Made by a program: the position numbers and the translations under genes. Under the pieces are notes generated by a model. The model was not told the origin of the DNA and ran no database searches. It saw only the letters and a program-made list of their open reading frames with translations. A stretch of 63,348 bases of DNA, the filler included, from Licmophora abbreviata (Eukaryota), in assembly GCA_900291995.1 (NCBI GenBank). It is 15 parts of 15 records of this genome, joined end to end, with 100 filler letters (N's around TTAATTAATTAA, not from the genome) between each part and the next. Parts side by side here need not be neighbours in the genome. Positions count along the whole stretch, not along the records: positions 15,242 to 16,587 come from OLMU01005294.1; positions 16,688 to 20,220 come from OLMU01005295.1; positions 20,321 to 22,897 come from OLMU01005296.1; 12 more parts are not named here. One strand, written 5' to 3'. This document shows, one piece after another, positions 4,092-54,795 of the stretch (position 1 is the stretch's first letter; each line of letters starts with the position of its first letter).

Positions 4092-4191
4092 NNNNNNNNN
4101 NNNNNNNNNNNNNNNNNNNNNNNNNNNNNNNNNNNTTAATTAATTAANNNNNNNNNNNNNNNNNNNNNNNNNNNNNNNNNNNNNNNNNNNN
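4092..4191. other. Artificial contig linker N44-TTAATTAATTAA-N44. Others at 11855-11954, 15142-15241, 16588-16687, 20221-20320, 22898-22997, 29978-30077, 31211-31310, 34443-34542, 44371-44470, 50192-50291, 55810-55909, 58475-58574, 61742-61841
   Basis: Identical 100-nt spacers whose core has stops in all six frames; an assembly artefact. Confidence 0.99.
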
Positions 4192-15831: not shown

Positions 15832-18400
15832 ATGTTGACGCTTCGCAATCTGCTGCTGTTCAGCGCTGCGCTTGCCCTGCAGCAGGCTGTCGTCCTCGCT
15901 CAAGGCGGGGGCTGTCTTTCGAACCCAGACTTCGACAATCAGTTCCCGGCCCCGGAGGAGGGATCGTGCTGCATGAACTCGGTCTGTGGACTTCCGTGCC
16001 CGGAACCTGTCTCGAAGCCTACCTCAGGTAAGTCCCCGATGAGAGTTTTGGAAAGTCGAGCATCTGAGTTTCGAATCGATGTGTACCCATTTCTGTGGCC
16101 GGTAGTCCCGGTAATTCGAAATCGTGTTCTCATCTCTGTTTGTTTCGATTATACCCAACACAGGGTTCGGTATCGCCGTGGGTGTCTCCATTGCCATTTC
16201 CTTCCTCGTCGGTATGGCCACGATTTTCGTTGTTCACGGTGAGGCCGAGAACTTCTTCGTCTGTGGCCATTCCTTGCCCCTTTGGATCGTTGCCTTCACC
16301 CTTGGTGCGCAGAGTGTCGACTCCAACGCCTTGTTGGGAAACGCCGATAACAGTTACAAGTTCCACTTTTGGGACGGGGCCGTCCTTCCGATCGGTCTTG
16401 GATTGAGCCTCATTCTCAATGGTCTCTTCCTCGCCCGTCACATCAACAAGGAACAAGTCTTGACTCTACCCGACATTCTGGCCAGACGTTACGGCAAGCT
16501 CAACGAGATCCTCATGAGCCTCGCGACCATAGTGTCGTTCATGTTCTTGCTGGCGGGAAACCTGGTGGGTATGGGCAAGATCCTCTCNNNNNNNNNNNNN
16601 NNNNNNNNNNNNNNNNNNNNNNNNNNNNNNNTTAATTAATTAANNNNNNNNNNNNNNNNNNNNNNNNNNNNNNNNNNNNNNNNNNNNCGTCTGGGCCTAC
16701 ACGGTCAGTGGTGGTCTCTTCAGTGTCGCCTACACGGATGTCGTGCAGGGCCTCATTGGGTGGTCGGGGTGCGTCGTCTGCGCCTACTACCTCATTGCCA
16801 ATGAAGATACTGCGGCTCCCCCTCCCAGCCGCGGGTTCCCCCTATACATCTACCCGGACAACATTGGAGATGGGGGCATCTGCGACATGTACCAGGGCAT
16901 TCCATGCACAAACACCGAAGGCGCCTGCTGCTACAACGAAGAACTGTGGTGCCCGGATCCGGATGATCCCACCCTAGAATGTTTGGCGGACAACGGCGCG
17001 TATCCCTTTGGTGACAAGCGTGTCTTTGCGGACCAGATGAGTAACTACCAGGCGCTTTCTCCCTTTCCGAATGCCATGCTCTTCAACTGGGCGACCATTC
17101 TGATTCTTGGATTCGGTAATCTTGCCGCCCTCGACTTTCAGGCTCGTTGTATGGCAGCCAAGACGCCTAGCACGGCCATGTGGGGTTGCCTGATTGGAGG
17201 ATGCATCTCCTTCTTTGTTGGAATTCCGTTTGCCTACATGGGAGCCATCCAGCGGTACGTGAATGCGATGGGAGGGCATCTGATGCCTTGGTTGCTGCTG
17301 TTGTGAAGTAGATTATCTCTCATGACTATTGTATCTATATCTTCTTTTGAATCGCCGCGATTCAATTCTTCAGTGTCTACTATGGACCAGACTCCATTCA
17401 TGCCGAGTTCAGTGTCGACACCTGCAACACACTTTTGGGACTACCAACGTGTGCCGCATGGGTTCCTAGCTCCTTCGCTTTCATCGATCTGTTGACTCAT
17501 CAGGCCCCGAAGGTCCTTGGAGCATGGTGTCTCATTGGTATTGTGGCGGCTTCCATGTCGACCGCAGATGGAGCCATTCTTGCGCTTGGGACTGTTTTCT
17601 CTCACAATATTATGCGACAGGTGGACAGGTGGTATCCCAACTTCATCACGGGGGACAATTTGCTCACGATCACCCGTATTTCTACCTTCCCCTTCACCAT
17701 ATTGGCAACCGTCATTGCTGCCTACTACAAGAGTGACGAAGGTGCGGTTGGTGGCACGGGCTACTTGCTCATTGTAGCCTTTGACTTGGTCCTTGCCACC
17801 GTCGTGCCTTCGCTCTTTGGATGCTTCTACACCAAAACGCCCCGTCCCAATGCCGCCCTCCTGTCTTGGATTACCGGAGCAATTACGCGCATTGTGCTCG
17901 AGTTCGCCTTGCCCAAGGATGGCTGGCTGCTGATTCCGTACGACGTTCCCGAGTTTTTGGACTACGGACCTGCGGCCAGCGCGAACGTGCCTGTCTTTGT
18001 TGATGAGACTTCGGATATCGTCTGGGATCCGTCCATGGAAGAGTGTGTGCAAGAATCCTTTGAAGATTACACTGGCGTGGATTCGCTCGCTGCCTTTGCT
18101 GCTGCGATTCTTGTCTTTACTACGGTGCAGCTCATTGAACATCTTCATGGTCCAATGTTTGACTTGGGTCCCATTATGGAGCCCTACGATAAGGTTTTGG
18201 GAGGCGAAGCAGAAGAAGACGAAAAGGTGGCCGCAGTGGGTGTCTCTTTCTACAATAGCAACGAGAGCAATGCGGAAATCAGCAAGGGAATCGTTGGCGA
18301 CGAGACGCAGATAACGAAGGAAAGCAAGAATGACTCAGACGAGGTTACTCCCGAAGGTGTCGAGGCCGATGACGCAGCGTCGGACGAAGGATCTGCCTAA
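15832..18400 (+). CDS. Sodium:solute symporter (SSS/SLC5, choline-transporter-like clade) with signal peptide and Cys-rich extracellular loops; introns 16028-16163 and 17256-17373; spans gap 16588-16687
   Basis: Motifs ENFFVCGHSLPLWIV, TLPDILARRYG, YTVSGGLFSVAYTDVVQG, DFQARCMAAKT, IVAASMSTADGAILA. Protein is colinear across the gap. Confidence 0.88.
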
Positions 18401-18749
18401 GAGTGGGGAAGGGTTTCGTTGCGCAATCTTTTTCGTTTTTATGTGTGGCATCGTTACAGGAGGGACAAGATGTGATTCTGGCCCTTTTTGCATGTTTTGT
18501 TTTTCGTTTTTAAAAAGTGTCTTGCGAGTGATGATACTCTTTCAGAAACGAGCCGTATGTTGTAAGAGTTTAAGCGGCTCATTGAATAACATGCACCCGT
18601 TTTCTAGGTACAATATATCAATTAGTTCTGGCATAGTGAGTGTCTGTTGTGCTACTGTTTATTGATACGATAGAGGACTGATCGAGACAAGAGACACCCA
18701 TGACAACAACGACGACGACACTTCCAAAATACCCAATACTACGAATGCA

Positions 18750-18961
18750 TTACTGTTCCAACACTCCCTTGACATACTCATACGTAACAAAGCCAATCAT
18801 GGAGGCTGGAACTGCTCGTACCAACTTTAATCCAAAGCCCCGATACAGGCCCCCCGGCTCTTGACGCAATTCCATGGCGGTACGATAGAGTCCCTTGTGT
18901 TCAGGGCTCGCTTGAATGCGCGTCTTGATCAAATCGGCGGGATATCCAACAGCCTACATTA

Positions 18962-19018
<57 letters not shown>

Positions 19019-19738
19019 GATGTGAGTATCAAAACTACCAATCACTCTTCCTCCACCACTACTAGTAGTACGCACCCACGCCACAGTCGCCGCCACGGCT
19101 CCCGACACGAGCGGCACCGTCACTCCATCATGCTGGGGCGTTCCACCAATCTGCTCACTCAAATAGTCCTTGCACATTTCATAAGAGACAAACCAGACCC
19201 CATGCGGTATGCCGTCCCTCAATAAGGTTGCATTCAATCCTCTCCAACCACTACTAGTCGTAGCAGCAGTCGTAGCAGCAGTGGTGGAGAGGAGATTGGT
19301 GCCAACATGGTGCGTCGCTTGCATCAATCGCTTATTGATCACTTGCTGTTCGACCTTGATGAGTTCTACCGGCGACATGAGGAAGGATTGTACGATGCCT
19401 CCGGTACAGCCTCCTACAAAGACGCCCACATATGGATTGCTCTGTGCTTCTTCTTGTTCTCCCCACCTCTTGCCAAGTCCGTATCCACTCATGAGGAGCG
19501 CATTCTGAAAGGGTACGGCTCCAATCATGGCGGAGGAGCCGCGCCAGAGGGATCGGATTCCAAACTGTTGAATGAGAGACTTGTACGTGTGCGAAACAGA
19601 AGTAGGGACGTAGTGTCGTTGAAGAGTGATGCCGGCCTGGTAGCGGGTGAGAATGGTATCGGTGGGCTGGCAGAGCAAGACGGCGGCGCCACCGGAGCAC
19701 CAGCCGGCGAAGAAGTCGATCAGGCCTTCTGAGGACAT
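18750..19738 (-). CDS. Mitochondrial carrier family protein (SLC25; basic amino acid/ornithine/carnitine-carrier-like); intron 18954-19075
   Basis: Three Px[D/E]xx[K/T] signatures (QPTDTILTR, SPVELIKV, YPADLIKTR) plus WRGLNATLLRDGIPHGVWFVSYE and GLYRGFGLKLVRAVPA. Confidence 0.9.
18963..19016. repeat. (AAC)18 microsatellite inside the carrier intron
   Basis: Perfect trinucleotide run read directly from the sequence. Confidence 0.97.
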
Positions 19739-20095
19739 GGGAATTCCGTGCAGGGGGAGAGAGAGAACGAAATGGAGGACCACACAGCACGGTACAGTAT
19801 CGTATCAGAACTGTATCATATCGTAGTGAGTACGCCAAGGAGGCTATATCTTTTTTGATTTTGATGAGAGGGGAGTTTGGATCTTCGGCAGTGTGTGACA
19901 GACAATTTCCGACGTCAAGTTGACACTTTGCAGTACCGAGGATTCCACCTAAGATTCTACAGAGCTGAGAGACAGTGACGCACTTTGTGACATTTCGGTG
20001 AAATCTTGAGATCTTCCGTCTCGTGGGATGAGAAACACAAGATCTCCTCTTGACACACACACATCAACTTCGTCGCTGTCCTCTCATTCAGCACC

Positions 20096-21690
20096 ATGAC
20101 ATTCTCGTCTTCCGCTCCTCGCGGCGTCTTTTCGCAGCTGGCGCGTCATGCTCGAAGCAAGAAGCAGCTGCAGCACCGAGCGCATCATCCGGATCCCTTC
20201 AATCCCAAATCCACGCAGGGNNNNNNNNNNNNNNNNNNNNNNNNNNNNNNNNNNNNNNNNNNNNTTAATTAATTAANNNNNNNNNNNNNNNNNNNNNNNN
20301 NNNNNNNNNNNNNNNNNNNNATGGAAGGCTGCCTTGAAGGCAAGTGTTTTCTAATTTTGTTTCTTTTTGTTTGGTAGACTGTAGGATGAAGTGAAGTCTA
20401 GAAGTATCGTGCCATGCCTTCTTCTCACACTTCCCACACTACTTCTTTTACTAATTACACTTCACTACACTACTATAGGAAGCAGATTTGCCTCGCACTC
20501 GCATGCACGAAGAGACCGAACACGCCCTCAAACTGGGTCTTCCCGGAGCTTCCTCCATTGACGACAAGACCATTCCTACCTTTTCTCGCGGCGAACTCCC
20601 CCACTTTGCCGGAATCAACACCTTCCTCAAGGCCCCCTACATTGAAGATGCCAATTTGGTGGGCAACTACGATGCCGCCGTCGTGGGCGTGCCCTTTGAT
20701 GGCGGCTGTACCTACCGCGCGGGAACGCGCTTTGGGCCGCAGGGCATTCGGCGCATCAGTGCCTTGTACACTCCCTACAACTATGAAAAGGGAATTGACT
20801 TGAGGGAACAAATGACGCTCTGTGATATTGGGGATGTCTTTACTATTCCGGCCAATATTGAAAAGTCCTTTGATCAGATCAGTAATGCGGTGGCGCATAT
20901 TGCCAGTACTGGGACGATGCCCATCATACTGGGAGGGGATCATAGTATTGGATTTCCGACGGTCCGAGGATTGGCGAGTGTCACCAGTAAGAATATTGGT
21001 ATCATTCATGTCGATCGTCATGCGGACATTCAAGAGAAGGATCTAGACGAACGTATGCATACCACGCCGTGAGTGATACTGTCTGCAACACAAAGAGCCG
21101 TCGGTTGTGTGTCCATATTCTTAGTATGTCTCACCAAGTGTTCACGCGACAATCGCCACCGTATTATATATTATATGCTCATTGATTTCTACAGTTATTT
21201 TCACGCCACGAACCTCCCCAACGTGAAGCCCAAGAATCTCGTCCAAATTGGCATTGGCGGTTGGCAAGTGCCCCGTCCGGCCGTCCCCAACATGATTGAA
21301 CGAGAAACCAACATCTTTACCATGGACGACATTGAGCATTACGGAATCGATAAGATTGCCGAAATGGCCCTCGAGCTGGCCTGGGATGGCTGCGATGCCG
21401 TCTACATGTCCTACGACATTGACTCGATTGAAGCGGCCTTTGTGCCGGGTACTGGATGGCCCGAGCCGGGTGGCTTGTTGCCCCGGGAGGCGCTCAAGTT
21501 GGTCGGACAAGTGGCCAAGGAGGGATTGTGCGGGATGGAAGTGGTTGAAGTGAGTCCACCCTACGATCATGCGGATATTACATCCCTGATGGCCCTGCGC
21601 ATTGTGGTGGATGCCCTCGGGGCCATGGTGAGTCACGGTACCATGGGCAAGCACAAGCACATTATTGACAAGGAGTTTGTTCCGATCTAA
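20096..21690 (+). CDS. gdmH: Guanidine hydrolase (GdmH-type ureohydrolase) with mitochondrial-type presequence; exons 20096-20339 (across gap), 20479-21068, 21195-21690; ~409 aa if the gap is empty
   Basis: Closely follows the Synechocystis Sll1077/GdmH sequence as I recall it: IPTFSRGELPHFAGINTFLKAPY, TRFGPQGIRRISALYTPYN, GGDHSIGFPTVRG, DRHADIQEKDLDERMHT, LVQIGIGGWQVPR, DIDSIEAAFVPGTGWPEPGGLLPREAL. It has Trp in GTGWPEPGG where agmatinases have GTGTPEPGG. The N-terminus MTFSSSAPRGVFSQLARHARSKK is basic/Ser-rich with no acidic residues. Confidence 0.9.
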
Positions 21691-21973
21691 GGATTATGAA
21701 TGAACAATGAGAGGAGATGAGCAGAGGCTATTGGTAGTTGCTGAATTCAAGAGAGGAGGGTGGGAGTAGAATTGTGTTAGGATTCAATAGTTTGAATATA
21801 GTGCACGTTTGCTGCAACGAATGAGTCGTGTAGTCGAGTCGCACGAAAGTTCAAACTGCTCTACTCTAGTTATTCTCAGTGGTCTATGTAGCCTTCGAAG
21901 CAGTCCAATCTGTTGTTTCCAGAGTCCTTGTACGAGAAGAGTGCCGTACTGTACTATCATATCACACTAAAGT

Positions 21974-22897
21974 CTACTCCGATATGGAAGTCGCAGCCGG
22001 ATCCGTTCCGACCAAACAGATTCCCCCACCAACAGTCCCACTCCAATCCACCCCTGCAACGACAAGGCTTCTCCCAACAGTGCAAAACCAAGAAGAGTAC
22101 CAAACAAGACACTCCCACCAATAATGATGGGTATACTCTGCATGGCTTGCACACCGAGACTGGACACAAAGAACGACACCATCTCGGCGAGTCCTACTGC
22201 AATGCCGGCACAAATGGCCCATTGCACGCCATGGTAGTCATAGTGTAGTTCGGAAATGCCATTGTCTTTGACAACGATGAAGAGTAAAAGGAAAATTCCA
22301 AGAAAGGCAGCGACAAATTGAAGAATAACGCCGCCTAAGACTGGGTGAATGCTGGCAGAGCCCTGTATCATAGAATATCGGAACGGGTGTACGGTGAAGA
22401 ATGGTGAGATGCGTGTACATTGTGAGGCAAGACGGAAAGCAACATCATAGTTGATATCAAACTTACTTTTTTGATGAAAATGTTGTATAGAGCGTACGAC
22501 AGTGCGCACAGGAGTGCTGGGATGATCCAAACAGCCAGTGGTGGTGCGACGAGAGAGGCCTCTCCTATGCTACTACTACTGCTACTACTCCCCGCATGGT
22601 GATCATGTTTCAAGTATCGATGATGCGGGCGATCCAGTTGGAGGGGCGACGATAGATGAGGCTTGTTGCGTGTGAACAGCAATGCAGTCTGCTCCGTCAC
22701 TTGTCCATGCCAGGAGGTACTGCGAGGTAAGAACGGCGACGGTGATGCTCCGTCCACTTGATGGGAAGCATGATGTGCAAATCTGGCGGGTGGGGTGCGC
22801 GTGCGGGAAGGGGGTGTAGCTGAGGAAGCGTGGGCTACACGCAAGCCCCGACCGTAGCCGATGGTGGGTGTGCTGCGTTGTCCTTTCGAGGACGAAG
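21974..22897 (-). CDS. EamA/DMT-superfamily small transporter; start in gap; intron 22363-22466; probable 1-nt homopolymer error at 22023-22027
   Basis: ALLCALSYALYNIFIKK|GSASIHPVLGG...GSVLFGTLLGFALLGEALSLQGWIGVGLL, a typical DMT C-terminal 'LGE.LS...WIG' motif. The frame is open up to the gap. Confidence 0.8.
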
Positions 22898-22997
22898 NNN
22901 NNNNNNNNNNNNNNNNNNNNNNNNNNNNNNNNNNNNNNNNNTTAATTAATTAANNNNNNNNNNNNNNNNNNNNNNNNNNNNNNNNNNNNNNNNNNNN

Positions 22998-23891
22998 AAA
23001 GGCATCATCCAATAGCTTGTTCCAAGCATCAATACTAGTAGCAGTAGTAGTCGTATAGGAACGGATGGGTCGATCGAGTAAACTGGATACGAGTCTAACG
23101 TTGGCACTTCCAAAGGCCTTTTGGTTTTCATTGGACAGTACATAGTCACAGGCTTCCGCGACTGCCACTTTCGTATAGGCCTTTAGAAAGTTCTGAATGA
23201 GCGGTCCCAAGGACCGATCGAGGGATGCCTTGAACTGCTGTGTAATTTGTTGTCGAATGGGACCAATAATGGGGAGTGAGTTGACAATGTTTCCAAAGAC
23301 ATCGATTTTGGATGTAAATTCGCTAATGCCGTCGTACAGGAGGACGGCGACAAGGGAATTGATGGCGTCGGAGGTGAGAAAGGTGCGCACGGCGGGGGCG
23401 TCGTAGGAAATGTCTTGGAGGGAATCGGTGAGTGGGGAGAGGTCGCCGAGGAGGTCGCGGAGGGAACGGTCTTCCTCCTGGAGTCGTTTGTAGAGGGAGT
23501 CCAAGTTGGTGCGAAGGAGACTTTCGGTACTGTCGATGAGTTCCGTGTCGTTCCAGAGTTCTTGGAGGATGAGACGAGCGTCCTGTTGCGGGAGGATACT
23601 CTCGAGATTCTCCTGTTTGGCCCAGTCTGTGACTTGTTTGGAGGAGGCGTAGAGGGGGTGTCGAAATCGAAAGGATGGGCGCGACTGGTAGTAGTAGTCC
23701 AAGTACTTGTATGATGAGGGGCATTTGGTGGAGTGGGTTTTTCTAGTACCGGTAGTACCTGCTGGCAGTAGTACCGGTACCGGTAGTATTGGTGGTTGCA
23801 TCAGAAGTGGCATCCCGAATGGAAGAACTGTCGCAAGCAGCAGAACAACATAGTAGGAACGATGATGCGAATGGATACACATTGACACCAT
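22998..23891 (-). CDS. Conserved-looking hypothetical protein with signal/transit-like N-terminus (3' end lost in gap)
   Basis: Long ORF with hydrophobic YYVVLLLATVLPF, a basic transit-like stretch, then an amphipathic helical domain. Confidence 0.65.
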
Positions 23892-24238
23892 GGTGGATGC
23901 TGATGGATGTTTGTTTTCTGTTGTGTGTTTTGTGTCGAAAGTAAGACGTTTCAAGTTTGTATCATATGTATCATACGTGGCCGGCCAGACGCACGCCGCG
24001 GTATTTATTTTTCAATTTTGCCTTGAACCTTTTTGAGCTGTGTGTTGTTGTTGTTGTTGTTGCATGTCTGTCGTCGTCGTTCCCTCTCTCGTGCAGACGC
24101 AGAGGTAGGTTACGGATGGCTGTACAGTAGTATGAATGGAAATAGATAAGAGAGAGTTCAAGAAGCAAAGCGAGAGAGATTGTACAAATTCACTTTTCAT
24201 GTTCGTAGTATCACCAGCACCAGCATCACGACGCAATC

Positions 24239-25395
24239 ATGACGAGCTCTGTTTCTAGGATTTGCAGAGGGACTATAGTCTCTGCTCTTCCTACTACTAC
24301 TAGAACAAGACGTGGTCTCTTGATCCTAGTGACGATTCTAGTAGTCCTCCTTGGACTTTGGACAGACGTTTGGTACGACAGCACGACCCTCCGTTCTGTT
24401 CTCACTACTACTGCGACGACTACTACACCTCGACATCCGCCAAGTACTACTACTACTACAACAAAAACTTCCACAACTACTCCTACTAGCGATAAGACTC
24501 CCACAAAACCCGTCGTCTACTACAGCATCGCTCGGAACGACCGTTCTGGAATGGTCATTCACAACATGCTCGAGGCCCATGCCTATGCCTTTGATCACGA
24601 CCGAGCTGCCTACGGGGGTGCCTGTCAAATCGAACGACACGTGAACTTTACCAGTGACTCACACCGCGAGTGGTATATTCGCACCAAACGACAGGAACGG
24701 AAGGATACCAAGACATTGATTCATGCCATGGGTCTGGAAGACGTCCTTCATTTTGCCTGTCCTACCAATCGAACGAGTGTGCAAGAAATCATGTTGGCAC
24801 CGAAGATTCGGTATCGTCGCGAAACCAACAGGCATCACTTGTTTACAGAGGAATGGTTGCAGCACATGTTCTCTGTAGTCCACTATCCAACCACAACAAG
24901 CGACGACACCCAAAAAAGAAGAAGACCGTGGCGGTGCATGTGCGGAGAGGTGATGCCAACCCGTGTACAGCCTCGCAGGTGGACTTCGTGCCCCGGTACT
25001 CGCCCAATGCATTCTACTTGGCCGTGCTCGACCGATACTTGCCGGAAGAAGGAGACTACGATATTTCCGTATACTCGGAAAGTCAAACCTTGGAGCCTTT
25101 TGATGTCTTTCGAGAACGCAACTATACGCTCCATCTCGATACGGATCTAGTCTCGGTATGGAGAGCCTTCTTGTCGGCGGATGTTTTATTCATGAGTAGA
25201 AGTTCATTTGCCTATGTGCCGGCCTTGTTAAGACGCAGTGGGAGAGTCATTTACTACAGAGGACCTTCCAAGCTCAAAAGCTGGACCATGGTGGACCAGG
25301 ATTTGATGGACTTTCATGATGCGGAGATTGAGCGCCTATATGCGGAATATTGTACCAAGAACCATTCAGCAGGAACGGACAATGTAATACGATGA
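24239..25395 (+). CDS. Type II membrane glycosyltransferase-like protein (fucosyltransferase-like 'VAVHVRRGD' motif); frameshift at the A6 run 24912-24917
   Basis: TM anchor, Thr-rich stem, RNDRSG, VAVHVRRGD, ADVLFMSRSSFAYVPALL. The two ORFs join if one A is added. Confidence 0.72.
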
Positions 25396-26107: not shown

Positions 26108-26893
26108 ATGATCACCCCCAAAGTCTCAGCTGCTCGTAGACGTGATGCTTATCTCGTTGCGATTCTGCTCCTTGTTGGGATAGGGCTTCGAAGGGACTTT
26201 TTGTCTGACAGTGCCCTGCCTCGCCTTGAAACCACCAGCAGTGTCCGTCAAAAACAAAGAAACATCAGAGAGAATTTGTACTCTGAGGCTCAGTCATTTC
26301 CAACATGCTGTCGGCACATGCCTTTGCCTTTTCCAGTGGAGCAACCTACGGCGGGTATTGTGAGAATGTCACCGATCTGAATTCCACTACTGGGCACCCA
26401 GGAAAGCAGAGACGCCATAGCATAGTGGTGTGAAAGAGCGTCGAATGGATCAAAAGAAATTGCTGGAAGGAATCGGTCTTCAGGATGCGTTGCCCTTTGC
26501 GTGTCCGACCAACAGCACTCACGACCGACTCATGAAGCAAAGATGGACGTATTATTTTGAGTCGAACTGGCGAGTATTTATGGACGCCTGAATGGATCGA
26601 TTACATTCGATCGATGGTCGAGTATCCAGCAAGAAGAGTGTGGCGGTTCATATCCGACGAGGCGACGTCACTCCATGCAGACACGGCCACCAACTCGTAT
26701 TACTTGGCCGTGCTCGACCGGTACTTGCCCGAATTCGAGGCCGACTATGAGGTATCAATATAACTCGGAAAGCATGTCTGTGGAGCCATTTGAAGTCTTT
26801 CAGGAACGCAATTATACACTTCATCTGGACACGGACATTGTCGCGGTTTGGAGAGCCTTCCTGCCACAATCTACCGACTTTGGCGGGGTGTAG
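26108..26893 (+). pseudogene. Degenerate tandem paralog of the 24239-25395 glycosyltransferase-like gene
   Basis: Homologous fragments (YLAVLDRYLPE, EPFEVFQERNYTLHLDTDIVAVWRAFL, gtggcggttcatatccgacgaggcgac) are spread over several frames, with deletions and a truncated 3' end. Confidence 0.75.
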
Positions 26894-27323: not shown

Positions 27324-28079
27324 ATGGCAGTCTTTAGTAAACTGCAGTGGAAGCAGGTCTTGACTCACGTGGGCATCGGCATGGCCTCGGCGAGTTTCTG
27401 GCGCGGCGCCTGGTACGTCCTGGACGACCAGCTCTTTCCGGAGAGTCCCGCCACGAGCGCCGCCGCGTCCTTGGCTCTGGGCACGGCAGGCATGGCAGCA
27501 TCGCAGGGACTGGTGCAAAAGAGCGAGCAGTGGGCGCTGCAGCTCAAGAACGCGAGGAACTGCAGTACGACCAGAACGATGCAGCTCAAATTGGCGCGCT
27601 TCGGGGCGCTCTACAGCATTGCAGTGTCGTGTGTACTGGTGTGGCGTGGTACTTGGATGCTCTGGGATGTCTGTTACGAGCGGTGGAGTGGGGAGAGTCC
27701 CACGTCGCCGGTTCATGCGACGCACAGTGGAGTGCTCTCGCATGGCTTTGCGGCTGTCTGTCTCTTGGGCGGCGGATTCTTTGCGTCGGTGCTGGCGCCG
27801 CCGGCGGCGGCCTCGGTCATTCAAGATTTGGCCGTCAAGGCGGGACAGGGCAAGTATGCGGCGGGACCGGCCGGGAGGGTCGCGCAGCACTTGTGGAAGG
27901 GGGGTACAACGGCGACGACGACGACGAGTGCAACAGCAACGGGCAAACCCTTGTCGCGTGCCCTGCATCACAGTACTACTACCAGTACGACGTCTCGGCA
28001 CAGTCTGCCTTCTAGTGGAAGAAGAAGACCAAGCATACCTTCTTCTTATCCCCGCTTCAAGCCAAACAAGGCCACGTAA
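27324..28079 (+). CDS. Fuseless-domain-like multi-pass membrane protein
   Basis: Repeated WRG(A/T)W..(L/W)D motifs (FWRGAWYVLDD, VWRGTWMLWDV) with intervening TM helices. Confidence 0.65.
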   Translation: MAVFSKLQWKQVLTHVGIGMASASFWRGAWYVLDDQLFPESPATSAAASLALGTAGMAASQGLVQKSEQWALQLKNARNCSTTRTMQLKLARFGALYSIAVSCVLVWRGTWMLWDVCYERWSGESPTSPVHATHSGVLSHGFAAVCLLGGGFFASVLAPPAAASVIQDLAVKAGQGKYAAGPAGRVAQHLWKGGTTATTTTSATATGKPLSRALHHSTTTSTTSRHSLPSSGRRRPSIPSSYPRFKPNKAT

Positions 28080-28681: not shown

Positions 28682-29650
28682 TCACGGTCCAAGGGCACCA
28701 GCACCAGTAGTGGTATCCATCTCAAAGGGCTCCACACAAGCGACAATCGGAAAGGCAATCGGGCCGGTGTTGACCACGCGAATCGTATTTCCCATTCCCG
28801 GCGTTTCAATGAGACTAAAGAGCGGACGATCCAAGCCGTCCTCGGTATAGAGCTGAATGGTCTCCTTGATACTGTTGGGTCCCTGCAAGAGTTCGATCCT
28901 AGCATTGAGAGGTCGGCCGTCGGTCTTCAATACGACTTTGACCATTTGGACAGAGGGATCGAACTCGGATGTGTAGACAGAGCCACCCTGGAGTACTCTG
29001 GTGGTAGTCATGGTGTAGAGATCTGAAGGCATCGCGTCGAGGCCTTCGCTAGAAGCGGACGATCCTTCCAGTTCGGGTGCAACATAGGCGTTCAAGGGGT
29101 ACTCGAGTGGCCCGGTGTTGCGGATAAAGACGGAACTCTTGCCTCCCGGGGTCTCCATGACACATCGGAACGGACGCAGCATTCCTTTCTCCATGGTAAT
29201 GTCCATGTTCTGCGGTGTATTATCCGGTCCCTGGACTAGTTTGATGTTTGCCATGAGAGGCATGCCCTCGGTCTCTAACAGTAATTGGACTCGCTCGAGC
29301 GCGGGGGTCGGAAACGACCATGTTCGGAGCGACCCTCCCTGGATGACGAGCGGGGTGATTGCCTCCCACATATCGTGGGCCTGCTGGGATCCCACTCTTC
29401 CACCCGTGGTTTTCAATTCGGAATATTGCCCCGGCATGGCCAGGGGTGCGCCCGCGGGGTCGTCGCCGCCGAACTGGGAACTGTAGGAAGACTCGTACGC
29501 CGTGGTGCTGGAGTACAAGCGGCCGACTGCGGGAGTCTTCGGTCGTGCAGTCTGAAGAGGGCTAAAGGCCAGTATTCCCCATTCGCTGAAATTCAAGACG
29601 CAGAGCGCCAGGAGCGTACTGCTGCGGGTCTTTTTCATCGGCGCTGTCAT
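28682..29650 (-). CDS. Diatom-typical two-repeat protein of unknown function with bipartite-like presequence
   Basis: Internal duplication QGGSLRTWSF...LETEGMPLMANIKLVQGPDN / QGGSVYT...LKTDGRPLNARIELLQGPN; signal peptide ending ILA-FSP. Confidence 0.8.
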   Translation of the reverse strand: MTAPMKKTRSSTLLALCVLNFSEWGILAFSPLQTARPKTPAVGRLYSSTTAYESSYSSQFGGDDPAGAPLAMPGQYSELKTTGGRVGSQQAHDMWEAITPLVIQGGSLRTWSFPTPALERVQLLLETEGMPLMANIKLVQGPDNTPQNMDITMEKGMLRPFRCVMETPGGKSSVFIRNTGPLEYPLNAYVAPELEGSSASSEGLDAMPSDLYTMTTTRVLQGGSVYTSEFDPSVQMVKVVLKTDGRPLNARIELLQGPNSIKETIQLYTEDGLDRPLFSLIETPGMGNTIRVVNTGPIAFPIVACVEPFEMDTTTGAGALGP

Positions 29651-30077
29651 CGTACTGGTCTCATACACTGCTGTCAAGGATGAAGTGATGGCCGGCGATG
29701 AAACAGATTTTGGTTTTTTGCGAACAGAACAAGTTTTGAGATCCATCCCCGACCACCGACCGCCAATCAGAACTGCTTGAAGATCCATGTGCGTCACTCA
29801 AACGCACGGATCGATCTACTTAACGCAGCTTTTTTAATACCTTTATACCAGTATGTATAGTGGTACCCACATTTCGTTAAATACAGGTGACGTGGCAGAG
29901 CAAGTCCTGCACTTGAGACGTCATGCGGGACCCAACATGGGACGCGGGACCCACAAAACAGTCACGGATACCAAAAANNNNNNNNNNNNNNNNNNNNNNN
30001 NNNNNNNNNNNNNNNNNNNNNTTAATTAATTAANNNNNNNNNNNNNNNNNNNNNNNNNNNNNNNNNNNNNNNNNNNN

Positions 30078-31763: not shown

Positions 31764-33430
31764 CTACACATCCACCCCACGAAGCGCCATATTGGTCCCG
31801 ATCGCACCCATGACAACACCCAACACAGCTACAACAGACGCAAGCTTTCCTTCCACACTGCCCTTATCACCTCGTTGACTCAACATGCGACGGAACATTA
31901 TGGCGGGATAGACAAAGACGAGAGCTGTTCCAAAGGTGGCACCGCCTACGGATGCCACCAAGCCCAGATCGGTTAGTTTGGATGCCAGCAGAGTCACGAC
32001 GCCCACGATGCCCAGCGTTAGCTTGTTGGTGAGGCCGGGAGTACGCTTGTCACTGGAGATCTTGAAGAGGTCAAAAATGCCATCGCGAGTTCCGACAAAC
32101 AACAATGGGTAGCTGGAAGCGGAAAGCAACAACAAGAGTGTGAACACAAGCACAATGGAGAAGCTTCATCTTTGTCGTCTAGCACACACCTGAACGTAAT
32201 GGAAATCGCCACTGCAATTCGACTCATGCTCATCAACACATCCTGCGTCGAATAATTGTTGAGAATAAGTCCATTGCTCGCCGCTCCAAACGTCAAGAAC
32301 CCCAAAGCCGTAATGACGCTATACAGCACGATACTCGTGCCAAAACTCAAGGCCGTCATGAGGTTGAAACGTTGCAACGTGTTATTCTTGAGTTCGCGAT
32401 ACAAGGTGGGCGAGAGGAAGTGTGCAATAAAAGCATTACTCAACATGCACATGAGAATCAACGACTGCGGGGATAGTACGCCCGCAGCGCCCGTGGATCC
32501 AAACACGGGTGGTGCCAGTGCCGTCGAGACGAAGGCTCCTCCCTCGGCATAGGACTTTCCAAAGTACCGAACTCCCATGGCAAGCGTCGTGTAGAGCATT
32601 CCAATAATACCCACAAGCGAAAAGGGAGCGAGAGAACTGAGATTCTTCAAAAAGCACAGCGGCATCAAGACCGCCCCCGTGATGCCCAACAAACTCTGGG
32701 TCCTTGTCACGGCCACTCCGAGACTTTTCAACAGGGCGACTCCTGTATCGGCCAGAATCATACTGTAACTTAAGTTTCCCGCAAAGCAGTCAATAAAACA
32801 CGAAAGAGCAATCAGCCAGCTACTCTTAGTTCCAACCGTGGCATCCCAGGCATCACTGTAGGACTGCGTCTTGGTTTGGGCACAGACACGTGCAATCATG
32901 CCAAAGGTGTATGCTGAAATGACGCCCATCAAGGCAATCAAGCCCGTGGCAGGAATCACCGCCGAGGGAGAATTTCCAAATGCAGCAATACCTGTACAAC
33001 AGAGCGTTGTTGGAGAATGGGGGCGAGAGAATGGGCATGTGTTACTTGAGTACAGCTCTCCGACCACGGAAAACCTTCAAAGCACCTCGACTGCAGGCAT
33101 GCAAACGTAGACACCCGACTCACCCGCAGGAAGACTCAAGACGCCCGCTCCAACAATACTCTTAACGAGATTGAAGACCTCATTGGAAATCGTAGTCGTG
33201 CCCTCCCCGGAGGTACTTTCGGCGGCGCCTGCACGCAACGACGACGTTGTCGTCGTTGTTGTGGCTGTAGGAGTAGTGAGTGCTGACTTGTTCCTGTTGC
33301 TGGTGGCTGCGGGACGTCCTACAGACGCGCGACGACGGGGCATCGACAAGGCGGAAGCGACATAGCCCTTATTGCTACTAGTGATTGAAAGGAGAAGAGC
33401 GACGAGCAACAGTGTTTTGCTGGTAAACAT
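31764..33430 (-). CDS. AAAP/Aa_trans amino-acid transporter with bipartite-like presequence; introns 32992-33123, 32113-32189
   Basis: EVFNLVKSIVGAGVLSLPAG, PLCFLKNLSSLAPFSL, AFIAHF, GFLTFG...ILNNY, SYPL. Canonical introns restore the frame. Confidence 0.9.
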
Positions 33431-33854
33431 ATTGAATTTTCGGTGGCGAAATCTGAAATCTGGAAACTGAATCTGAAATTTGAGATACTTCGAGACACCG
33501 TCACGAACAGTTCAAATCTTTCTCAAGCTACAGCAGCTAAAGACTGCAATGAATCCGAAATGCTTTTCAAAGAAGGTTCAGGCACAGCTACGGTGACGAT
33601 GGTGTGTTGGTGTCATCACATCAACGCGCCGCCGATGAAAGTGCCAGCTTTTGAGCGGTTCCAGACGCGATCTTGAGATCTCTCGGAGGACGGACGGACG
33701 GATGGCACATCTCACATCTCTTCTTGTCCGTCGGCTGGCAGACAGACAGGGTTCGTATGTTGCGCGCCCGTCGGCACGTACGTACTTTCTTGAAAAACGG
33801 TTGGCTCTCGTGTCGTCCACTTTTTGTTTCGAACATCAACATTGCATGTTGACA

Positions 33855-34442
33855 ATGGTCGGTGGTCGATTTGCTATCTGTTGCCTCTGGTGGGCATGGC
33901 TGCTGCCACTCAGCAGTCAGGCTTTCGCGCCTGCTCTCCCGAGTCGGACATTGACCACGCCTGCTGCGATTCGCTTGCCTCATCGCAGCAGCGTTCCGAC
34001 ATCACGGGGTCGCACTCTGATTTCGTTGTCGGAAAGCGTCGCCGCTGTTGATGAGATCGACGATTCACCTTCCGATGACCAGGGTACATCTACCATGACG
34101 GCCAGTATCTTTAACCTGGTCAAGGGAATTGTTGGAGCCGGCGTACTCAGTCTTCCTGCTGGGATTGCTGCCTTTGGAAACGCACCATCCGCAGTTGTTC
34201 CTTCTATCGCACTAATTGCTGTAATTGGAACCGTCAGTGGCTACTGCTTTAGTCTGATCGGACGTGTCTGCTCCTTTACGGGTGCCACATCCTATCGGGG
34301 TGGATGGGAAGAAAGTGTTGGGACGGGCAGTAGCTGGTTGCCAGCAATCTCGGTGCTCCTAAAGACACTTTTCGCCGTCTTGGCCTACAGCATGATCCTC
34401 GCCGACACAGGCACGGCTCTGCTCAGCACGATCGGAGTTGAA
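33855..34442 (+). CDS. AAAP/Aa_trans amino-acid transporter, plastid-type presequence (SSQA-FAP); 3' part lost in gap
   Basis: Signal peptide + AFAP; SIFNLVKGIVGAGVLSLPAGIAAFG. Confidence 0.88.
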
Positions 34443-46396: not shown

Positions 46397-47886
46397 ATGG
46401 TCTGGCTCCTGCCGATGCTATTCTTGGCCGTGACGGTACAAGCAGCTAGCAATCGTCGTCAAAATTGTCTGACACTACAGCTCCCGTCCAAGAACGAACC
46501 TAGTACAGGCGGCTCACTACTGTGGAACAGAGTTTCTCCCCTCTCTATGAGAGCAGACATATTCATTACGGCGAACCCATCTGCTACTACAACTTACAGA
46601 AACTCCGAGGGGGTGCCAAAACTACAGCGCCGAGCAAACCAGCCGCTGCCCTCGACACCAAAGGCGCCTCGATTCCTTCGGAAGTCTTCAATTTGGTCAA
46701 GGCCATTGTCGGTGTTGGCGTACTCAGTCTACCCGCCGGCGTCGCTGCTTTTGGAAGTGCTCCTTCCAGTATGCTTCCCGCCGCTATCCTCATTACTGTC
46801 ATTGGTATACTTTCAGCCTTTGGCTTTGCCTTGATTGGTCGAGTCTGTGCCTATACGGGAGCCCAGAGTTACCGCGATGCTTGGAGTCAGTCGGTCGGTC
46901 CTAGTACCAGCTGGATCCCAGCGTGGTCCACCACGACGAAAACCTTCTTGGCGTGTGTCAGTTTTAGTATGGTCCTGGCGGATACCTTCAGCTTGCTGGC
47001 CCAGCAAGAGCGTACTCAGACGCTCCTGGCTGTGACGACCGTCATCTTATTGCCGCTATGTTTGATGAAGGAACTCAAGAAACTCGCGCCGTTTTCCTTG
47101 ATTGGAGTCTTGGGCATGGCGTATACGGCATTGAGTATGACACTCCGCTACCTCGATGGCACGTACAGCATGCCCGGCGGCAGTTTTGCCAGTCAATTGT
47201 CTTCTGAATTCCAACCCGCCTTTGGCGACAAGGGTGTCTCGAGTGTCTTGTCTTCCAACGCTCTCATCCTCTTGTGCATGTTGAGTACTGCATTCATGTG
47301 TCACTTTAGTGCACCGCGCTACTACTGGGAGTTGGAAAATCGTACCCTCCCGCGCTTTCATACCGTCGTCCATTGGAGCTTTGGTATTGCCATTGTCTTG
47401 ATGGCAAGCATTACGACGCTTGGATTCTTGACGTTCGGAACGGCTTGCGATGGACTGGTCTTGAACAACTATTACAACAAGGATATTTGGATGAGCGCGA
47501 GTCGTATTGCCGTGGCAGTGTCCTTGGTCTTCTCGTACCCGCTTGTCTTTGTGGGATTCCGAGACGGAGTCTTGGATATTCTCAAAGTGGACAATGAAGA
47601 GAGGAATGCGGGGTTGTTGAACACCGTCACGATCGTATTGTTGGGTCTCATTACGAGTCTGGCATGCACGTTGAAAGATGTATCGTTCGTGTTGGCGATT
47701 GGAGGAGCGACACTGGGCAATGCCTTGACTTACCTGTATCCGGCATTGATGTACCGTGCGACCGTCAAGGCACAGGGTCGTTCCGAGACGGGACAAGTGT
47801 GGATCGCAATGACGTCGGCCGTTTTGGGAGTTGTCATGGGAGCGATTGGAGCCAAAATGGCGATTCAAGGGGCAGTTGGACATTAG
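46397..47886 (+). CDS. AAAP/Aa_trans amino-acid transporter with signal peptide and LRGG motif; probable 1-nt error near C4 46538-46541
   Basis: MVWLLPMLFLAVTVQA signal peptide in an upstream frame; EVFNLVKAIVGVGVLSLPAG, GFLTFG...VLNNY, SYPL. Confidence 0.88.
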
Positions 47887-53653: not shown

Positions 53654-54795
53654 ATGACAAACAAGTCAACCATTGCTTCCGAAGTTTTGGCCGCTTCCTT
53701 GGGAGGAGCCATTTCGGCGTCGATTCTCTATCCCCTGGAGGTGAGGGGAAAGAGGAGGAGGGTATGACTGGAGATTAAAAAAAGCGACTCATTTACACGC
53801 GATCTCTTCTCTCTCTCTTTCCAGGTTCTCAAGACCAAAATGCAAGCCGAAACATCGGACAAGGAGAACCACGACGACACTTCTTCTTCGGACGGAAACA
53901 AAAAGACCATGATTCAGTATGCCCGTCACCTTTACGATACACACGGACCCTCTGTTTTCCTGGAAGGCATGGAATGGAGTGCTGTACAGAGCGCAGTGGA
54001 AAAGGCCCTCTACTTTTTTGCCTACGAAGCACTCAAGAGTCTATACACGTCTACTACGAGAACCACTTCAATTCCCCCTATTCCCAACTTGACGCTTGGA
54101 TGCATCGCAGAGTGGGCGCATTTGCCCATTACTCTACCTCTGGACTGCTGGACGACCAAGATTCAAACTAACACTGATCGTAGTAAGAATGCAATGGTCT
54201 TGTTGACGAGCATGTTGAGTGAAAAGGTGAGTACACGGGGGGTGGACGATCTGTGGGATGTGTCACGATTTATGGACTCTCATGTCATGTATATCAACTG
54301 CATTTTCACTGCGTTCCCTCTTAGGGCACGCGTGGTATGTACAAGGGCATTCAAGCCTACGTCGTCTTGTGCTTCAAGCCTGCCTTGCAGTATACCATCT
54401 TTGAACAAGTCAAGGCACTCATGGTGAAATCTCGTCGACACAAGCATCTGCATGCGGCGGAAGCGTTTCTGCTAGGCATGGTGGCGCGGGTTGTGGCGAC
54501 ACTTGTCGTATTTCCCTACGTTCGTGCCAAAGTAGTGCTGCAAACTCAGAAAGAGTCGACGACAAGTGAGGATGGTGAGAGTGCGACCACCAACAAGAAG
54601 ACGAGCATTCCAGCACTTCTTCAAGACATGTATGCCGATGGTGGCATTCCATTAATCTATCAGGGGATCACGCCGGAGTTAACTCGGGGCGTGTTGAGCA
54701 GTGCATTAATGCTCATGATAAAAGAAAAGGTGGCTCAGCTGGTGCAAGGTATGCTTCGAGCGACAGAGCAGCAGAAGCGGTTGGGTCGACGATGA
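53654..54795 (+). CDS. Mitochondrial-carrier-family protein, peroxisomal adenine-nucleotide/PMP34-like; introns 53741-53824, 54227-54324
   Basis: YPLEVLKTKMQ, LYFFAYE, LPLDCWTTKIQ, KPALQYTIFEQVK, FPYVRAKV. Confidence 0.85.

Follow-up and report, generated by a model that had tools for sequence, protein, structure and literature searches.

A candidate guanidine-utilisation gene cluster around GdmH, common to a diatom and green picoalgae

Introduction

To our knowledge, assimilation of guanidine through the guanidine hydrolase GdmH has been established only in bacteria. The closest described system is the Synechocystis locus gdmH-ghaA-ghaB-gimABC (sll1077-sll1082), which according to the part of PMC12704784 that treats it is controlled by a guanidine-I riboswitch and by NtcA; passages of PMC10119275 and PMC8390497 likewise identify speB2/sll1077 as a guanidinase. 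Here we describe an algal locus with an orthologous hydrolase gene, located in a 63,348-nucleotide stretch of DNA (hereafter "the window") from the Licmophora abbreviata assembly GCA_900291995.1. With a probability of about 0.62, we regard this locus as a eukaryotic guanidine-utilisation cluster, the core of which consists of GdmH, a divergently oriented mitochondrial carrier of the SLC25 family, a sodium:solute symporter (SSS) and a Fuseless-family protein.

The hydrolase of the cyanobacterial locus is approximately 70% identical to the algal protein over exon 1. In both cases the enzyme is accompanied by (in the alga, candidate) uptake genes, and putative nickel supply genes are nearby in at least one algal lineage. 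In contrast to the cyanobacterial locus, the algal genes are nuclear, contain introns, have separate promoters and lack a riboswitch. The presumptive algal importer is an SSS protein rather than an ATP-binding cassette (ABC) system, and maturases of the HypA/HypB type were not seen in the algal cluster. Instead, the latter has two additional members, the mitochondrial carrier and the Fuseless-family protein, whose presence would imply a compartmentalised pathway. The closest prokaryotic GdmH proteins (75-79% identical) are encoded in riboswitch-led operons of Alphaproteobacteria (L083, L085, L086, L089, L102), but among the surveyed loci, SSS, carrier and Fuseless-like genes were seen only in the Mamiellophyceae-type groups introduced below. 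Eukaryotic nutrient clusters do exist, e.g. those for nitrate and urea in Mamiellales and the DAL cluster of yeast, where genes without mutual homology that serve to take up and degrade a single nitrogen compound are likewise adjacent. The algal cluster would differ from these in its substrate, and it differs in its gene families and in being common to green picoalgae and a diatom. Diatom papers, as exemplified by a section of PMC7542463, treat the GdmH gene as "agmatinase" of the urea cycle. A description of an algal GdmH gene cluster was not found in the literature on eukaryotic, diatom or picoalgal guanidine hydrolase or agmatinase, supplements being outside the search.

Results

Gene content and continuity of the locus

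A preliminary description of this DNA had placed four consecutive genes in 15832..22897, encoding an SSS transporter, a mitochondrial carrier, a mitochondrial GdmH and a drug/metabolite transporter (DMT), and had proposed that they are linked across two gaps in the sequence. Gene models, Pfam matches and alignments with homologues confirmed that all four genes exist. They are given here together with the intergenic region between carrier and GdmH and with a gene further downstream, all positions being those of the window:

15832..18400, plus strand: SSS gene; exons 15832-16027, 16164-16587, 16688-17254 and 17374-18400
18750..19738, minus strand: gene for a mitochondrial carrier (SLC25) of 288 aa, recognised by Pfam Mito_carr; exons 19738-19076 and 18953-18750
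19739..20095, no strand: divergent intergenic region of 357 bp between the start codons of carrier and GdmH, as follows from the coordinates
20096..21690, plus strand: gene for a GdmH-type guanidine hydrolase; exons 20096-20220 plus 20321-20339, 20479-21068 and 21195-21690
21967..22897, minus strand: gene for a weakly EamA-like membrane protein; exon 1 22897-22467 and exon 2 22362-21967, delimited by splice sites
27324..28079, plus strand: gene for a small membrane protein of the Fuseless family (PF15993), 251 aa; recognised by Pfam, tblastn, alignment A1 and an AlphaFold2 (AF2) model

The window DNA is eukaryotic with a GC content of about 0.5. It is made up of 15 pieces, and each of the 14 joins is formed by a 100-base linker (44 N, TTAATTAATTAA and 44 N), starting at positions 4092, 11855, 15142, 16588, 20221, 22898, 29978, 31211, 34443, 44371, 50192, 55810, 58475 and 61742. 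The proposed linkage across the linkers at 16588 and 20221 held up, as homologues of SSS and GdmH read through both. At 16588-16687, the homologue P0121, which is 75% identical to the window SSS, aligns with residues 63-207 before and with residues 225-409 after the linker, and the Pfam SSF profile (PF00474) matches with positions 1-111 before and 133-164 after it. Continuity of both alignments therefore indicates that this join is real and that approximately 17 SSS residues are missing in the gap. The GdmH coding sequence is contiguous between 20220 and 20321. Diatom homologues carry HHPDPFNPKxTKGWKAALKE at this site, while the window reads HHPDPFNPKSTQG (ending KSTQG) up to the linker and WKAALK behind it. 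Since the homologous sequence continues in register with zero residues lost, this join is real as well. In addition, a single unbroken piece (16688-20220) contains the carrier gene together with the 3' part of SSS and the 5' exon of GdmH. Metagenome reads matching this piece were restricted to contig pieces of 150-306 bases at low depth, derived from four marine runs of two studies; no record bridging a linker was present among these matched pieces, which is neutral in respect of the joins.

The hydrolase is a GdmH orthologue

When compared with the PDB, GdmH exon 1 matched best to 7esr/7oi1 ("Probable agmatinase 2"; E 1e-91), which we take to be the Sll1077 protein, and to 9fek (E 5e-90), whereas the next entry, guanidinobutyrase, reached only 7e-29. 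Exon 3 yielded the same ranking. Pfam Arginase (PF00491) was detected with E values of 4e-36 and 3e-35, while NCBIfam agmatinase models scored far under their cut-offs (101 bits vs 302 and 81 vs 174). The motifs GGDHS, DRHxD, SYDIDS...D and an E-containing C-terminal motif, presumably those that bind the metal, are aligned and conserved in comparison to 7esr and 9fek. Together with the ranking of the solved structures, these motifs bear out the GdmH-specific identity that had been claimed for the hydrolase. It is a clear GdmH orthologue, for which nickel dependence and specificity for guanidine are predicted; in work from 2022 attributed to Funck et al., the enzyme was reportedly specific for free guanidine.

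Presence of spliceosomal introns in the hydrolase gene was also confirmed by the splice sites. The intron at 21069-21194 is of the GT-AG type, and the first intron (20340-20478) displays an apparent GC-AG boundary, i.e. AAG/GCAAGT ... TATAG/GAA. Residues 1-29 of the protein (MTFSSSAPRGVFSQLARHARSKKQLQHRA) are basic and hydroxylated, comprising seven R/K/H and zero acidic residues, and thus look presequence-like. Presequence-like N-termini are also found in GdmH of loci L006 and L027.

Orthologues with 80-93% identity over exon 1 are present in many diatoms and in Phaeothamnion, Ectocarpus and Diacronema. GdmH loci from the prokaryote collection, mostly from Alphaproteobacteria, exhibit 74-89% identity, the clearly bacterial ones 74-79%. 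A guanidine-I riboswitch (RF00442) is located approximately 3 kb upstream on the same strand in five of seven bacterial gdmH loci, which were sampled from 80 genome-collection GdmH matches; as expected for a eukaryote, the window contains no guanidine riboswitch. In a tree of full-length GdmH proteins, all 23 eukaryotic sequences form one clade (support 96 in the Shimodaira-Hasegawa-like approximate likelihood ratio test, SH-aLRT) beside two bacterial sequences.

Several individual sequences deserve mention. GdmH of the bacterial loci L084 and L043 is placed beside the eukaryotic clade (SH-aLRT 99); in L043, a gene for CbiM cobalt/nickel uptake and an M16 peptidase gene follow gdmH, and in L084 ABC transporter genes precede it. 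L081, a 1,556-base contig filed under a metagenome-assembled genome (MAG) of Bacteroidota, encodes a diatom-like GdmH (89% identical), and P0298, labelled "bacterium", is an SSS of the Mamiellophyceae type. In both cases, eukaryotic DNA has probably been assigned to a bacterial MAG during binning. P0033 from the Tetraselmis astigmatica transcriptome MMETSP0804 groups with Micromonas-type GdmH sequences (SH-aLRT 94), which may mean that GdmH is present in other green algae or that the sample was contaminated.

Linkage of the genes is conserved in two distant algal lineages

To survey the gene neighbourhoods of GdmH, 80 of the 544 loci confirmed in a metagenome scan with GdmH exon 1 were combined with the 80 genome-collection loci, giving 160 loci. 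Among the 80 metagenome loci, 29 are of the Mamiellophyceae type and fall into groups A to E according to the GdmH tree. As judged by tblastn with window exons, relatives of SSS and carrier lie directly upstream of GdmH in 19 loci. All three partners, i.e. SSS, Fuseless-like protein and carrier, are encoded beside GdmH in 13 Mamiellophyceae-type loci; in nine further loci, one or two partners are seen up to the end of the contig, and the remaining seven extend for less than 2.2 kb upstream, where nothing could show. Consequently, the partners are present in 13 of 13 Mamiellophyceae-type loci with enough flank and there is no locus with enough flank that is without them. A profile hidden Markov model (HMM) of 18 algal SSS proteins detected 13 matches among 13,027 open reading frames (ORFs) of the 160 loci, all in Mamiellophyceae-type loci. 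Hence, of the four linked genes initially described, SSS, SLC25 carrier and GdmH stood (13/13 loci), whereas the DMT gene had no counterpart (0/160 loci).

In groups A, C, D and E, the four genes follow one another without interruption, but their order varies. The Fuseless-like gene is located between SSS and carrier in groups A and B, after GdmH in groups C and E and before SSS in group D. The window SSS gene has the opposite orientation compared with the Mamiellophyceae-type loci. None of 39 flanking ORFs is shared between groups. Shared linkage in the face of unshared flanks and reshuffled order therefore characterises the module as an island and not as part of a general synteny. With five groups and the diatom window, three or more non-homologous genes are adjacent beyond background synteny, and we infer that the genes of the cluster belong to one pathway.

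What organisms do these loci come from? The 90% identity cluster of the group B SSS includes Bathycoccus prasinos CAL6415312.1 and that of group C Micromonas commoda XP_002501560.1; GC contents of 0.51 and 0.65 for the loci of groups B and C fit Bathycoccus and Micromonas, respectively. Groups A, D and E belong to the same SSS clade (SH-aLRT 97), which is placed beside diatoms within the ochrophyte/haptophyte/dinoflagellate radiation. An assignment of groups A to E to stramenopiles, as read from the SSS tree, was dropped on account of the Bathycoccus and Micromonas members of the 90% clusters. These members and the diatom window together indicate that the module is common to green picoalgae and a diatom. 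In group E, the cluster is bordered by a gene for a transporter of the major facilitator superfamily, which follows the Fuseless-like gene in locus L076 (11782-13965, plus strand).

A Fuseless-family protein is the fourth conserved member

The real fourth conserved member of the cluster is a Fuseless-family protein, which the preliminary description had missed. Its gene emerged as an extra shared gene from Pfam analysis of four representative loci (intron-poor eukaryotic DNA) and is present in every cluster locus. The window protein matches the family with E 1.7e-11 and 44.6 bits against a cut-off of 25, and the copies of L006, L027 and L031 score 35.8-43.8 bits. Using the locus copies as queries, tblastn recovered the window gene with E values of 1e-16 to 1e-25. 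The gene is situated 5.6 kb downstream of GdmH.

In an alignment of eleven copies (A1), FWRGxWYVxD is invariant and is accompanied by a second motif, WRGxWxxWD, and by a PP motif; in the window protein, the motif FWRGxW(Y)xxD / WRGxWxxWD is repeated twice. The AF2 model shows four long helices, with moderate scores for the predicted local distance difference test (pLDDT 64) and predicted template modelling (pTM 0.50). When the PDB was searched with this model by Foldseek, no entry reached an E value of 0.001. Most of the green-algal copies start with basic, presequence-like stretches.

We know of no biochemical function for any member of the Fuseless family. The Drosophila protein belongs to the same Pfam family and has the same repeated motif region as the algal proteins. 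However, the latter are half its size with four helices, many have N-termini resembling organelle presequences, and they are linked to GdmH. The one functional report that we know of for the family concerns the synaptic phenotype of Drosophila, in which Fuseless is reportedly needed for localisation of presynaptic Ca2+ channels (Long et al. 2008, as cited in PMC2712991).

The carrier and the symporter as candidate transporters

Pfam Mito_carr detected the window carrier with E values of 2e-26 and 4e-13, exon 1 containing two repeats and exon 2 a third one; its orthologues in the loci have three Mito_carr repeats, too. The PxD/ExxK/R signatures are visible in alignment A2, the first of them being degenerate (PxDTxLTR). 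The intron contains a (TTG)n run. Carriers of the window and of the Mamiellophyceae-type loci are 40-42% identical and share long invariant motifs, among them TLLRDGxPHGVWF. Relatives of the carrier are named "carnitine/acylcarnitine transporter 20/29" by the Joint Genome Institute, and an R-D pair at the second substrate contact point is, so we assume, the rule for SLC25A20/A29. Out of 1.84 billion representatives, 68 proteins matched the group E carrier at E 1e-30 or better, and P0392, P0393, P0417 and P0449 are common to this list and to the homologues of the window carrier. For the latter, approximately 70 representatives at 40-58% identity are followed by a drop to below 30%. By its sequence, the carrier is a distinct, apparently dedicated SLC25 subfamily, the same in both lineages, and a candidate for import of guanidinium into the matrix. 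The head-to-head arrangement of carrier and GdmH is found in all Mamiellophyceae-type loci, which makes the intergenic region 19739..20095 a candidate shared promoter.

The SSS protein has a signal-peptide-like N-terminus that is followed by a Cys-rich motif, and its outer loops are Cys-rich as well. Window exons match SSF with E values of 4e-11 and 5e-4, and intron-free orthologues with 1e-23 to 1e-27. Identity between the window SSS and the Mamiellophyceae-type SSS is 50-68%. In the sample used for the tree, the clade is limited to ochrophytes, haptophytes, dinoflagellates and Mamiellophyceae. The best solved relative is CHT1, the choline transporter SLC5A7 (E 4e-15 over approximately 180 residues), and the urea symporter DUR3 is matched with E 1.5e-4; similarity over the full length to CHT1 or DUR3 was not found in the PDB search. 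Hence, the algal SSS belongs to the same superfamily as SLC5A7/CHT1 and DUR3, but it matches only with approximately 180 N-terminal residues and forms its own clade. The names "choline transporter" and "SLC5A8" that are attached to its relatives in databases are automatic annotation. We consider the SSS protein a candidate importer of guanidine in the plasma membrane.

A putative nickel transporter gene in Bathycoccus-type loci

Bathycoccus-type loci contain an extra gene, P0471, between carrier and GdmH, which is neither present in the other groups nor in the window:

L027:8098-9531, minus strand: P0471-type gene, with copies in L010, L012, L015-L018, L022, L025 and L026

The encoded protein has long acidic and Ser-rich inserts and helices with the motifs HxxxGPDH and GHSFG, which may correspond to the His/Asp signature helices of HupE/UreJ or UreH/NicO transporters. 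P0471 and the diverged copy of L010 match HupE/UreJ (PF04955, PF13795) with E values of 0.02 and 0.003, i.e. under the cut-off. In the Atlas comparison, P0471 scored 0.94 with a UreH-like cluster and 0.88 with NicO clusters. P0471 is thus probably a putative nickel transporter of the UreH/HupE-like kind. Its location inside the Bathycoccus-type cluster is in line with the reported requirement of bacterial GdmH for nickel. A HupE homologue also follows the genes of the Ni-dependent metformin hydrolase, according to a passage of PMC11399263. No HypA/HypB-like maturase was found in the scanned algal loci.

The EamA-like gene, further genes of the window and its origin

The gene at 21967..22897, previously described as a DMT/EamA member of the cluster, could not be retained. 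It matches EamA (PF00892) with E values of 0.002-0.004 and 17.8-18.8 bits, under the cut-off of 28.2, and tblastn found no counterpart in any of the 160 loci, neither for this gene nor for the ORF 22998-24011. Because of this lack of counterparts, we excluded the EamA-like gene from the module. Its start codon is not visible and its 5' end is open at the linker at 22898. Upstream of it, ORF 22998-24011 (minus strand) has a signal-anchor-like start, lacks a Pfam family and runs without stop into the linker. Possibly, both belong to a single gene.

Between GdmH and the Fuseless-like gene, ORFs 24658-25395 and 26561-26893 (both plus strand), which belong to no known family, share the sequence EPF(D/E)VF(R/Q)ERNYTLHLDTDxVxVWRAFL and look like a local duplication. 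A second mitochondrial carrier gene (53768-54792, plus strand) is located within 35 kb of the cluster, and three Aa_trans amino-acid transporter genes (32021-33076, minus strand; 33639-34442 and 46504-47883, plus strand) lie at a distance of at most 35 kb. Downstream of the Fuseless-like gene, Pfam recognised the following gene:

28682-29797: diatom pyrenoid-shell gene (DiatomPyrShell)

In the SSS tree, the window is placed among raphid pennate diatoms (Seminavis, Nitzschia, Fistulifera, Phaeodactylum). This placement and the DiatomPyrShell gene identify the window as diatom DNA.

Discussion

In the scheme that we infer for substrates, cellular location, direction of transport and co-regulation, the SSS protein with its signal peptide and Cys-rich outer loops would take up guanidine at the cell surface together with Na+. 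The carrier would move guanidinium across the inner mitochondrial membrane, and GdmH, directed to the matrix by its putative presequence, would hydrolyse guanidine there, yielding urea and ammonium. A role in the same compartment is proposed for the Fuseless-like protein, which might provide a further pathway for a solute or a metal or be a partner of the carrier. Where a UreH-like transporter is present, i.e. in the Bathycoccus type, it would supply Ni2+.

A number of observations weigh against this scheme. The best solved relatives of the SSS protein are choline transporters, with alignments covering only approximately 180 residues, and neither tblastn nor the profile HMM found the SSS gene in the 131 loci that do not belong to the Mamiellophyceae-type groups; these are bacterial apart from five (L001-L004, L081) that are diatom-like or short and of the eukaryote type. 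There is accordingly no prokaryotic precedent in the sampled loci that links the SSS family to guanidine. Assignment of P0471 to nickel transporters relies on sub-threshold matches, and no nickel maturase of the HypA/HypB type (GhaA/GhaB-like) is present among the scanned window ORFs. In the window, the EamA-like gene, frame 22998-24011 and further unknown ORFs separate GdmH from the Fuseless-like gene, and their linkage across the linker 22898-22997 is putative. Finally, conservation of the linkage in other diatoms and ochrophytes, which the preliminary description had made a touchstone, is only partial. In Seminavis, carrier and GdmH are both on a contig of 104,303, and P0377 and P0029 are both on a contig of 10,515 (in each case inferred by matching size, not sequence). 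However, SSS and GdmH do not share a contig in Seminavis, Fistulifera and Mayamaea (again judged from sizes, not sequence), and the diatom-like loci L001 and L002, whose GdmH is 87% identical and whose flanks are eukaryotic, have no partner within 2.1-3.5 kb upstream and 4.7-9.3 kb downstream. The cluster is neither diatom-specific nor universal in diatoms.

The module could be real and nevertheless serve guanidine made inside the cell, or another guanidino or ureido compound, in mitochondrial salvage or detoxification, with the SSS protein transporting some other solute or a product, for instance urea. Plants and green algae are indeed described, in a portion of PMC11018352, to produce guanidine via homoarginine-6-hydroxylases, and respiration is inhibited by guanidine compounds according to an excerpt of PMC12623156. 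The carrier subfamily is named for carnitine and basic-amino-acid carriers, and the SSS superfamily includes DUR3, albeit with the weak match mentioned above. On the other hand, a surface-type SSS with signal peptide in every cluster suggests uptake, and the closest bacterial relatives of GdmH sit with importers behind guanidine riboswitches. Overall, we judge a role in handling internal guanidine to be unlikely, though it deserves serious attention.

A different reading denies the adjacency any functional meaning: the genes would be neighbours by descent, or through one block transfer, that are not yet separated. Such a history would account for the loss of linkage in several diatoms, and a single block transfer could explain the sharing, as Mamiellophyceae are placed beside diatoms in the SSS tree. 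Yet the four genes are adjacent in five groups across Bathycoccus-type and Micromonas-type algae, although 39 of 39 tested flanking ORFs differ between the groups and the cluster itself occurs in three internal arrangements, and in one lineage a nickel-transporter-like gene has joined the cluster. Mere neighbourhood therefore appears improbable to us. It is more improbable still that contigs from different organisms or places were brought together by the linkers through faulty assembly or binning. The window is admittedly a chain of 15 short pieces, its DNA occurs in marine metagenomes only at low depth with word shares of 0.26 or less, and the join at 22898-22997 is putative; but SSS and GdmH stay in register over the linkers at 16588 and 20221, one piece (16688-20220) unites three of the genes at least in part, and the same neighbours recur in independent loci. 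Thus, a cluster for utilisation of external guanidine remains our preferred interpretation. A bolder version of it, in which the Fuseless protein constitutes a new mitochondrial pathway for guanidinium (or nickel) and the four-gene block was transferred as a unit between the ancestor of Mamiellales and a lineage related to diatoms, is a long shot.

If the cluster operates as proposed, abundant marine eukaryotic phytoplankton would compete for guanidine as nitrogen source. The SSS protein, the dedicated SLC25 carrier and the Fuseless-family protein are the first candidates for eukaryotic guanidine transporters, and the cluster is one of the rare nutrient gene clusters that are common to different eukaryotic supergroups. 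All predictions are testable in cultured, transformable species. For the Fuseless family, linkage to GdmH provides a first functional lead. The bolder version, long shot as it is, would reach further: an action of guanidine on neuromuscular transmission has long been known, and if the family handles guanidinium generally, the synaptic Ca2+-channel defect of Drosophila fuseless might connect to this action.

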